A stretch of 64,000 bases of DNA from a virus (Duplodnaviria > Heunggongvirae > Uroviricota > Caudoviricetes): IMG/VR virus record IMGVR_UViG_2585427757_000006; one strand, 5' to 3'. This document shows positions 27,081 to 28,106 of this stretch, in pieces. The translations under genes were made by a program, and so were the position numbers. The notes under the pieces were generated by a model. The model was given only the letters and a program-made list of their open reading frames with translations. It made no database searches and was not told the DNA's origin. Positions within the stretch are counted from its first letter, which is position 1; the number at the start of each line of letters is the position of its first letter.

Positions 27081-27158
27081 CACAGCGTTGAGCGGTCTGG
27101 TTTATGTTAGCGGAGTCTTAATCTGGGTGATTAAAAGGCCAAACCGCTCAACGCTGTG
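27081..27158. repeat. long hairpin: 16-bp perfect inverted repeat (CACAGCGTTGAGCGGT / ACCGCTCAACGCTGTG), ~46-nt loop, 2 nt from the tRNA-Ser 3' end
   Basis: Arms at 27081-27096 and 27143-27158 are exact reverse complements. Confidence 0.8.
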
Positions 27159-27160
27159 TC

Positions 27161-27247
27161 TGGCGGAGAGTAATGGAATCGAACCATCATCGCTTGCGCA
27201 ATGGGACGGTTTTCAAGACCGCTTGAGCACCATGCTCCCTACTCTCC
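27161..27247 (-). tRNA. tRNA-Ser (anticodon UGA), long variable arm
   Basis: Hand-folded: acceptor GGAGAGT/ACTCTCC, anticodon loop CTTGAAA, T-loop TTCGATT, 3' CCA encoded. Confidence 0.75.
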
Positions 27248-27249
27248 GG

Positions 27250-27399
27250 CCGTTGTGGTGGCCGGTACTGAATCTCCGGCATACGGTGCAGCCAATTAGG
27301 ACTACGGACGATCACCGCTCGCGAAAGGGAAGATTTGCGGCCGCATTTCCCTAACATCCAAGAAAGCTATCGCATCAGTCTGCGAATCCACCACAACGG
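27250..27399. other. unassigned ~220-bp structured spacer inside the tRNA cluster, closed by a 12-bp inverted repeat (CCGTTGTGGTGG / CCACCACAACGG)
   Basis: Arms at 27250-27261 and 27388-27399; internal palindromes (GCGGCCGC, GGGAA..TTCCC); no canonical tRNA fold found by eye. Confidence 0.5.
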
Positions 27400-27471
27400 T
27401 AAGATCACTACCTTTCGACCAGTCATTGTGCACATGAACGACGATTAACCGTAATGATCTTATCGTTGTAT

Positions 27472-27547
27472 TGGTGCCGGTTAGCGGACTCGAACCGCTG
27501 ACATCCTGCTTACAAGGCAGGCGCTCTACCAACTGAGCTAAACCGGC
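27472..27547 (-). tRNA. tRNA-Thr (anticodon UGU)
   Basis: Hand-folded: acceptor GCCGGTT/AACCGGC, D-arm GCTCAGTTGGTAGAGC, anticodon loop CTTGTAA, T-arm AGCGGTTCGAGTCCGCT, CCA. Confidence 0.8.
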
Positions 27548-27551
27548 AATT

Positions 27552-27638
27552 TGGTGGGGAGTGATGGAGTCGAACCACCCGAGTCGCAATGACAGTAGAT
27601 TTACAGTCTACCCCGCTGCCCCTACGGACTAACTCCCC
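27552..27638 (-). tRNA. tRNA-Tyr (anticodon GUA), long variable arm
   Basis: Hand-folded: acceptor GGGGAGT/ACTCCCC, anticodon stem-loop GTAGA-CTGTAAA-TCTAC, T-loop TTCGACT, CCA. Confidence 0.8.
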
Positions 27639-27643
27639 TAAAT

Positions 27644-27718
27644 TGGCGATGGTGGGTGGATTCGAACCACCGACCAGTTGGTTAACAGCCAACTGCTCTA
27701 CCGCTGAGCTACACCATC
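27644..27718 (-). tRNA. tRNA-Asn (anticodon GUU)
   Basis: Hand-folded: D-arm GCTCAGCGGTAGAGC, anticodon stem-loop GTTGG-CTGTTAA-CCAAC, T-arm GGTGGTTCGAATCCACC, CCA. Confidence 0.8.
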
Positions 27719-27984
27719 AATTCAGCACTGCCAGTATTTATTACTCAACAGTGCCAATCGCGACGGTTTAGTTTCTGCCAGGAAACGCACCGCTACTTGC
27801 ACTTTTCGTTTGTGCCAGACGCTTTCGACTTCGCTCAATAGTAGAAGGCAAAATCTTTAAGTAGATGATGTTTCTGAGGACAGCACCTACTTTGTAATTT
27901 ATACAATGTGATGTATGGAATCATTTGTTGTGAAAACAGGCACCAATGGCAACAGTGGTTAAACCTACACAACAATCCTGTCTT

Positions 27985-28106
27985 CACAACGTTGAGGCCA
28001 CTACTCCGATTGAATGTTTGCCCAACATGTTACATATCAACGCTCGCCGGTATCTCTGTGAATAGAACCTTAGAATTGATAAAAATGTAATGGCCTCAAC
28101 GTTGTG
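27985..28106. repeat. 16-bp perfect inverted repeat (CACAACGTTGAGGCCA / TGGCCTCAACGTTGTG) enclosing ~90 bp upstream of the tRNA cluster
   Basis: Arms at 27985-28000 and 28091-28106; shares the CGTTGAG core with the 27081 hairpin. Confidence 0.8.

Follow-up and report, generated by a model that had tools for sequence, protein, structure and literature searches.

Long inverted repeats interleaved with four tRNA genes in the virus record IMGVR_UViG_2585427757_000006 (Caudoviricetes; the whole 64,000-nucleotide stretch that was analysed is referred to here as the window) form helices in RNA, and our analysis favours, with moderate confidence, the view that these helices are parts of a minus-strand polycistronic tRNA and non-coding RNA transcript, in which they serve as processing and stability punctuation that releases the tRNAs and end-protected small RNAs. 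The stems, none of which is annotated, are structured at the RNA level, belong to families that recur in other phages, lie on the strand of the tRNAs and stand at a fixed spacing from them; we infer the nucleases that act on them and a small-RNA function for the products.

A repeat finder placed all three inverted repeats at the coordinates given by an earlier sequence-only reading. The arms 27081–27100/27139–27158 (hairpin H1) and 27985–28004/28087–28106 (hairpin H3) each contain 16 bp of perfect pairing and extend to 20 nt at 95%, and 27250–27261/27388–27399 pair perfectly over 12 bp. The distances from the CCA of tRNA-Ser to H1 (27159–27160) and from the 12-bp arm to the 5' end of tRNA-Ser (27248–27249) are 2 nt each, as that reading had them. 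It had overlooked a fourth hairpin, with arms at 27388–27411/27451–27474 (24 nt, 83%), which abuts the CCA of tRNA-Thr. Perfect inverted repeats whose arms measure 14 nt or more and whose loops do not exceed 150 nt number three in the window, two of them being the tRNA-cluster stems, versus 0 or 1 in each of 30 Markov randomisations. The remaining one (37328–37345/37365–37382; 18 bp, GACCTGCTTCCGTATATA, 19-nt loop) has no sequence relationship to the hairpin family described below. None of 200 shuffles folded as well as the minus strands of H1 and H3, for which the z-scores are given in Table 1.

H1, the fourth hairpin and H3 are members of one family of 65–125-nt hairpins. In every related locus the base of the family is 5'-CACA[A/G]CG…CG[C/U]UGUG-3' and the stem has 16–21 bp, the invariant stem base being written as CACAACGUUGAG. 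A stem of at least 16 bp starting from CACARCG/CGYUGUG, on the transcript strand and with covariation, was found in full for H1 and H3 and with 2 mismatches for 27388–27474, in which the lower stem is degenerate and the base pairs with the CCA of tRNA-Thr. The lone mismatch in each 20-nt repeat is a G·U pair on the tRNA strand and an A·C on the opposite strand. H3 has relatives in SSU5, in pHCM2, in plasmids of Cronobacter and Klebsiella and in Yersinia pestis pMT1; across them 19 pairs are conserved, 4 of them with compensatory changes, and one-sided changes yield wobble pairs, with 12 wobble cells to 3 broken ones. Across relatives of H1 there are 20 pairs, including 3 with compensatory changes (GUUGAG to GCUGAA, with the partners matching) and one conserved U·G. 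The strand-specific wobbles and the compensatory changes together indicate that the stems are conserved at the RNA level.

A relaxed scan of IMG/VR returned more than 120 loci with 71 unique hairpins. Positions 13–20 of the stem, which lay outside the fixed part of the search pattern, were nearly always paired in these 71 hairpins, the pairs being of several types and often G·U; a single mismatch at position 9 was present in many of them, and the lowest 5–7 bp are nearly invariant among paralogues and unrelated phages. At about 70 loci an H1-type hairpin follows the last tRNA of a cluster (Ser, Asn or His) by 1–3 nt, and hairpins of the CACAACGGUAAG type, to which the window's 27388–27474 hairpin belongs, share 2 nt with the CCA of tRNA-Asn in plasmids of Klebsiella and Cronobacter. 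Family hairpins start −2 to +3 nt from a tRNA CCA at about 80 loci, and the strand with the longer stem is the tRNA strand in 138 cases versus 15.

An Rfam search over the hairpins and the leader that precedes H3 gave no family at gathering thresholds or at E ≤ 10, and weak Rfam matches to mir-142, SNORD and the rnk leader were put down to chance. Only 8 matches to the hairpin pattern were found in 185,579 genomes (one per species), so the hairpin is not a dispersed chromosomal repeat, and literature searches found no description of the hairpin family or of the leader domain. Two suggested resemblances were rejected: kinship with the microRNA-size 24B_1 hairpin of the Stx phage phi24B through a shared AACGUUAAG, since the short hairpin at that locus (HM208303, 45692–45711) is another one and lacks the CACAACG base, and an attC-like reading of GTTGAGC/GCTCAAC, since neither cassettes nor an integrase accompany the stems, which pair perfectly.

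The 12-bp repeat is the closing helix of a module of another kind, designated type B, which in the window contains a 5' stem-loop (UCGCA-GACUGA-UGCGA), a variable middle and a 3' hairpin (GCCGG…CCGGC). A covariance model of the module (R1) was derived from an alignment of 12 similar elements from other phages, from which window-type copies were excluded. Three helices are conserved in this alignment, namely the closing helix, the 5' stem-loop (GCGCA-GGCUGA-UGCGC) and the 3' hairpin (GCCGG…CCGGC), and 91.6% of the cells in these helices are paired, versus 25–58% when the partner columns are slid by 1–3 positions. R1 matched the window at 27252–27400 on the minus strand (60.3 bits, E = 4.7e-13, model positions 1–115 of 115), which was its only match in the 64 kb and shows that the 12-bp repeat closes a recurring structured module; 52 copies were found by R1 in loci L001–L100. 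The ends of the module are conserved and the central 40–120 nt are entirely different between phages, and the P1-like phages D6 and P7 carry the window's module at 96% identity. In some modules of other phages (L094-type loci, e.g. L133 and L149), tRNA-like T-loops (GGUUCGAUUCC and GGUUCGACUCC) lie within the variable centre, which hints that tRNA fragments may recombine with the scaffolds.

The upstream arm of the 12-bp repeat (27399–27388 on the minus strand, CCGUUGUGGUGG) doubles as the 3' end of the 27388–27474 hairpin, and therefore the fourth hairpin and the closing helix of the module are mutually exclusive. The same shared arm explains the core common to the 12-bp repeat and the hairpins. 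The earlier treatment of the three repeats as equivalents is not quite right: two of them belong to one hairpin family, and the 12-bp repeat closes the different, STnc100-like module discussed below. The earlier suggestion of small structured RNAs gained computational support from the strand-specific wobbles, the compensatory changes and an independent covariance model at 60 bits, and the accompanying suggestion that the stems are processing sites may hold as well.

The module is probably a distant relative of the STnc100/PasD family. Lambdoid and Stx prophages encode the small RNAs STnc100 and PasD, the latter having been recovered with Hfq by RIL-seq (bioRxiv 10.64898/2026.05.13.724894), and one STnc100 copy is located 75 nt downstream of stx2 (PMC12370729). 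In the STnc100 consensus and in the window module alike, an outer helix UGGUG…CACCA is followed by GAAU and by a GC-rich hairpin before the 3' strand, and the core architecture of STnc100, comprising this outer helix, a 5' stem-loop after GAAU and the GC-rich hairpin, is found in the window as UGUGGUGGAUUCGCA-GACUGA-UGCGA … GCCGG…CCGGC-CACCACA. Both are phage-borne and share their transcription units with tRNAs. In sister SSU5-like plasmids, the spacer that separates tRNA-Thr from tRNA-Ser matched the STnc100 model at 44.8, 43.8 and 41.3 bits (E 1e-6 to 1e-8, gathering threshold 47), with the terminator part of the model aligning spuriously onto the tRNA; R1 also matched these STnc100-like spacers, at 37–39 bits, and locus L077 matched STnc100 at 26.2 bits. 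Unlike STnc100, the window module has no Rho-independent terminator of its own, tRNA-Ser starting 2 nt after the core; it is preceded by a long hairpin that is not part of the Rfam STnc100 model, and its central region is unrelated to that of STnc100. We rate as new the apparent use of an STnc100-related module as an internal spacer of a phage-plasmid tRNA operon.

Table 1. Features of the tRNA cluster and its spacers in the window
Feature	Position	Strand	Description	Energy (kcal/mol)	z-score	Basis
Leader domain	28107–28400	minus	Structured; ends immediately 5' of H3; includes hairpin 28180–28199/28245–28264			
H3	27985–28106	minus	20-bp stem including one G·U; branched 82-nt interior; placed 266 nt 5' of tRNA-Asn	−47.8	−6.14	
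ATGATTCCATAC motif	27913–27924	minus	12 nt; between H3 and tRNA-Asn			
tRNA-Asn (GUU)	27644–27718	minus				ARAGORN; Rfam tRNA, 75.5 bits
tRNA-Tyr (GUA)	27552–27638	minus	Missing from the close relative Cyrano			ARAGORN, Rfam
tRNA-Thr (UGU)	27472–27547	minus				ARAGORN, Rfam
Fourth hairpin	27388–27474	minus	5' arm ACAACGAUAAGAUCAUUAC; 3' arm GUAGUGAUCUUACCGUUGUG	−33.7	−4.2	
Type B module	27250–27400	minus	~150 nt			Covariance model R1; helices in 12 relatives
tRNA-Ser (UGA)	27161–27247	minus	Type II			ARAGORN
H1	27081–27158	minus	20-bp stem including one U·G; conserved inner motif AAGACUCCGC	−41.2	−9.65	
3' trailer	26985–27080	minus	After H1; two terminator-like hairpins; operon end			

The window shows 98.8% identity to Escherichia phage CMS-2020a and 96% to phage Cyrano and, judged by sequence, is an SSU5-like phage-plasmid, as these two are. 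The features in Table 1 lie in a minus-strand non-coding block of about 1.5 kb (~26985–28470) that has no credible open reading frame (ORF). The same block occurs in 773 plasmids of PLSDB, which come from Klebsiella, Escherichia, Enterobacter, Yersinia, Salmonella (pHCM2), Citrobacter and Cronobacter. Upstream of the block are small genes and an ATP-dependent DNA ligase gene, all on the minus strand; a Pfam search of the neighbouring ORFs identified a glutaredoxin and the ATP-dependent DNA ligase only, and no RNA-processing enzyme. ARAGORN returned exactly the four minus-strand tRNAs of the sequence-only reading, and no additional tRNAs that might account for the repeats emerged, either from relaxed ARAGORN searches, which gave only artefacts beyond the four at 80% thresholds and in intron and mitochondrial modes, or from the Rfam tRNA-clan models at E ≤ 10 over the window. 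The tRNA-Ser gene fell below the gathering score of the general Rfam tRNA model and scored 46.6 bits with tRNA-Sec (threshold 47). In the record of phage D6 the amino acid of its tRNA-Ser was left unassigned by tRNAscan-SE.

A non-coding leader of ~360 nt (28107–28470) is near-invariant in the SSU5-like plasmids of E. coli, Klebsiella, pHCM2, Cronobacter and pMT1. Its predicted fold is a closed multi-helix domain ending right at H3; the alignment contains 103 predicted pairs, 8 with compensatory changes, and most of its columns are invariant. A 39-nt variable, covarying leader hairpin is deleted in the window and kept in Cyrano and others. In the 3' trailer, the terminator-like hairpin 27048–27020 (GCUUGCUA…UAGCAAC followed by U6) precedes a second hairpin at 27006–26987 (AAAGGGGCUUCGGCCCCUUU with a U-tract), which a terminator scan scored as a strong bidirectional terminator; the trailer is conserved in E. 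coli, Enterobacter, Salmonella pHCM2 and Klebsiella plasmids. The motif ATGATTCCATAC occurs in 5 copies in the window versus 0.35 expected, its sites being 18709, 24739/24758, 27913–27924 and 28899–28910, and the two copies at 24739/24758 make up a palindrome in the gap that separates the integrase gene from the ORF beside it. The motif is probably an operator or a phage-specific promoter element, and the copy at 27913–27924 possibly fulfils one of these roles for the tRNA cluster.

Hairpins and modules of the same kinds were also found outside the phage-plasmids, where hairpin-plus-module arrays open the early-left operon of many temperate phages of ~40 kb. The order in these phages is constant, with a CII-like gene, the CI repressor gene, a terminator and a sigma-70-like promoter followed by a hairpin, one or more modules, further hairpins, recombination genes and the integrase gene. 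Directly after the CI repressor gene, the hairpin starts 13–15 nt past a -10 box of the sigma-70 type, a distance that places it at the very 5' end of the transcript. An apparent tRNA-like element upstream of 71-nt prophage hairpins (GGCGGUU…AACCGCC with a U-run) is, judged from a larger set of examples, better regarded as a terminator-like hairpin, and a BLAST search of E. coli genomes with a prophage array gave short promoter-region matches only.

The elements also appear to move between phages. Cyrano lacks 27248–27465 as well as tRNA-Tyr, and other plasmids have different inserts at this place; the Cyrano junction reads CCA-ACACAATT-tRNA-Ser, shows no target-site duplication and could have arisen by deletion between two direct CACAAC repeats. 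The P1-like phages D6 and P7 (loci L002 and L003), which otherwise show no relationship to the SSU5-like plasmids, share with the window, at 96% identity, a 272-bp block (27138–27409) that takes in the 3' arm of H1 (27139–27158), tRNA-Ser, the module and the fourth hairpin's 3' arm; this is evidence that RNA modules have recently been exchanged horizontally. From these comparisons, the conserved hairpin bases seem to be recombination points at which tRNA and RNA modules are shuffled between unrelated phages. In Y. pestis pMT1 (L012, ~1790–1915), the SSU5-like homology ends exactly at the 3' end of H3 (window 27983) and caf1R, the F1 capsule regulator gene, starts ~15 nt beyond it, so that the junction of the caf locus coincides with the hairpin.

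The fixed spacing of 0–3 nt between the hairpins and the tRNA ends suggests tRNA punctuation. In the favoured mechanism, RNase P would cut the 5' end of each tRNA and the 3'-maturation enzymes would cut just past the CCA, freeing the spacers, whose ends the long stems would then seal against 5'-end-dependent RNase E and against 3' exonucleases. Cleavage by RNase III in the hairpin after tRNA-Thr could free its 3' arm for the closing helix of the module, so that cleavage or melting of the fourth hairpin, followed by closure of the module, would constitute a maturation switch. H1, the conserved tail and the terminator would leave as a small RNA of the 3' external transcribed spacer (3'ETS). The involvement of RNase III is plausible from the dimensions of the stems, since the enzyme accommodates ~22 bp of double-stranded RNA (dsRNA) and prefers G-C/C-G between its two cuts (PMC6212723), and the stems, with 20 bp including one G·U and a central CG, come up to the expected ~20–22 bp of mostly uninterrupted dsRNA.

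Several observations weigh against this interpretation. RNase III needs A-U at the D/D' positions (PMC6212723), and a cut centred on the conserved CG would put C-G there. A stem that starts 1–2 nt past the CCA could hinder the 3' maturation of the tRNA and not help it, and the conservation of the stem base across unrelated phages exceeds what a processing stem would need, hinting at a specific partner. H3 lies upstream of the candidate promoter motif at 27913–27924 and hence may belong to a transcript other than that of the tRNAs, and a simple promoter scan of 26900–28800 found no promoter. With regard to the module, the Rfam STnc100 model (RF02076; gathering threshold 47 bits) had no match in the window at E ≤ 10.

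The alternative that the repeats act at the DNA level, as terminal inverted repeats of miniature transposons or as recombination sites beside tRNA genes, is very unlikely. The CACA…TGTG ends do look transposon-like, close relatives such as Cyrano and the plasmids with different inserts vary by presence and absence, and the 272-bp block is shared at 96% identity with unrelated P1-like phages. However, one-strand wobbles and compensatory changes keep the stems paired, the elements keep to the tRNA strand in the 138 versus 15 cases and to one type of tRNA operon, and the 8 matches in the species genomes do not amount to a dispersed multicopy family. The Cyrano junction, with its deletion between CACAAC repeats in place of a target-site duplication, likewise speaks against transposition, and homologous recombination at the conserved hairpin bases would account for the shuffling of modules; the dispersed copies, target duplications and strand-neutral conservation expected of a miniature inverted-repeat transposable element were thus not found. 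That the elements are unusual or degenerate tRNAs missed by standard tools is extremely unlikely and largely refuted, the H1 loop GACUCCGCUAAC matching 11 of 12 positions of the T-arm/acceptor part of tRNA-Thr and T-loops like GGUUCGAUUCC occurring in some modules of other phages, yet relaxed ARAGORN searches adding nothing credible, the Rfam tRNA clan giving only the four tRNAs, and stems of 20 bp being incompatible with a cloverleaf.

Two further explanations accept that the elements function as RNA. A cis-acting leader of the put type, in which the nascent hairpin or module modifies RNA polymerase for processive reading through terminators, would suit the ~40-kb phages, whose arrays contain terminator-like hairpins and start a few nt past a promoter beside the CI repressor gene; lambda nutL, with N, and HK022 putL occupy such a promoter-proximal early-left position. 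We nevertheless consider antitermination improbable, because no family motif and no relationship to putL/putR were found in the HK022 immunity region (22000–31000), because H1 stands at the operon end directly before two terminators, where an antiterminator would have no purpose, and because the fixed 0–3-nt spacing after tRNAs points to processing. It is also quite improbable, although largely compatible with the processing interpretation and not exclusive of it, that the transcripts are decoy or anti-defence RNAs, with stable dsRNA rods and tRNA-like ends that titrate away a nuclease or an immune sensor of the host and so complement the phage tRNAs, which stand in for host tRNAs cut by anticodon nucleases. 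Phage copies of tRNAs such as the Asn, Thr, Tyr and Ser tRNAs that share the locus with the hairpins are reported to counter tRNA-cleaving defences, the module ends resemble a T-arm with …CACCA, and the conservation of the stem base across unrelated phage families suggests a common specific binding partner; however, no protein gene is linked to the elements, and to our knowledge no sensor of the stem-base motif has been described.

The processing interpretation has parallels in several known systems. As at the R sites of T7, the stems of rRNA operons and the tRNA cluster of T4, where RNase III acts, stable RNAs within a polycistronic precursor are bordered by ~20 bp of almost perfectly paired dsRNA, but the stem base in the window is conserved across paralogues and unrelated phages, and RNase III sites need no such conservation. 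Small RNAs of the 3'ETS-leuZ type are derived from spacers of tRNA operons, and their ends are set by tRNA-processing enzymes, as in the tRNA punctuation model. The window's RNAs lie, like these, in internal or 3' external spacers of a tRNA operon, and H1 has the 3'ETS layout in being located between the last tRNA and the intrinsic terminators (27048–27020 and 27006–26987), but the window's spacers, with their 20-bp rods, are far more structured. The species 1 and 2 RNAs of the T4 tRNA cluster are stable, phage-encoded RNAs whose function is not known. They too are structured non-tRNA RNAs interleaved with tRNAs, and are co-processed with them in T4; the phage family differs, and the likeness is one of arrangement, with no sequence kinship expected. 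In murine gammaherpesvirus 68, tRNA-like units are joined to pre-miRNA stem-loops and the transcripts involve Pol III, tRNase Z and Dicer. There, as in the window, a tRNA or tRNA-like unit is followed at once by long hairpins, which in the virus are freed by tRNA 3' processing, but the system is eukaryotic and serves as an analogy only. The central G-C/C-G step of the window's stems would agree with the in vivo preference of RNase III (PMC6212723), the fit to the A-U rule at D/D' being doubtful.

A broader and rather unlikely possibility is that SSU5-like and P1-like phage-plasmids and ~40-kb lambdoid-type phages share a modular RNA system that has not been described, consisting of hairpin/scaffold arrays in which the invariant base is a handle for a factor and the inserts are exchangeable cargo. 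In such a system the CACAACG…CGUUGUG hairpin would alternate with a scaffold made up of the closing helix, the 5' stem-loop and the T-arm-like 3' hairpin and carrying a hypervariable insert of 40–120 nt, and the arrays would be placed either at the start of the early-left operon or among tRNAs. A dedicated host or phage factor would grip the base, and the inserts might be, for example, target-specific regulators or anti-defence decoys.

Phage tRNA clusters are usually annotated as tRNAs with empty spacers, and in the cluster analysed here the spacers are conserved structured RNAs, which recur in hundreds of phage-plasmids of clinically common Enterobacterales, including pHCM2 of Salmonella Typhi, Klebsiella plasmids and the pMT1 backbone. 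If these RNAs are processing and stability elements, they would account for the joint production of phage tRNAs and small RNAs. If the modules act like STnc100 and PasD, a virulence-associated family of prophage small RNAs would extend to phage-plasmids, where it would be linked to tRNA operons.

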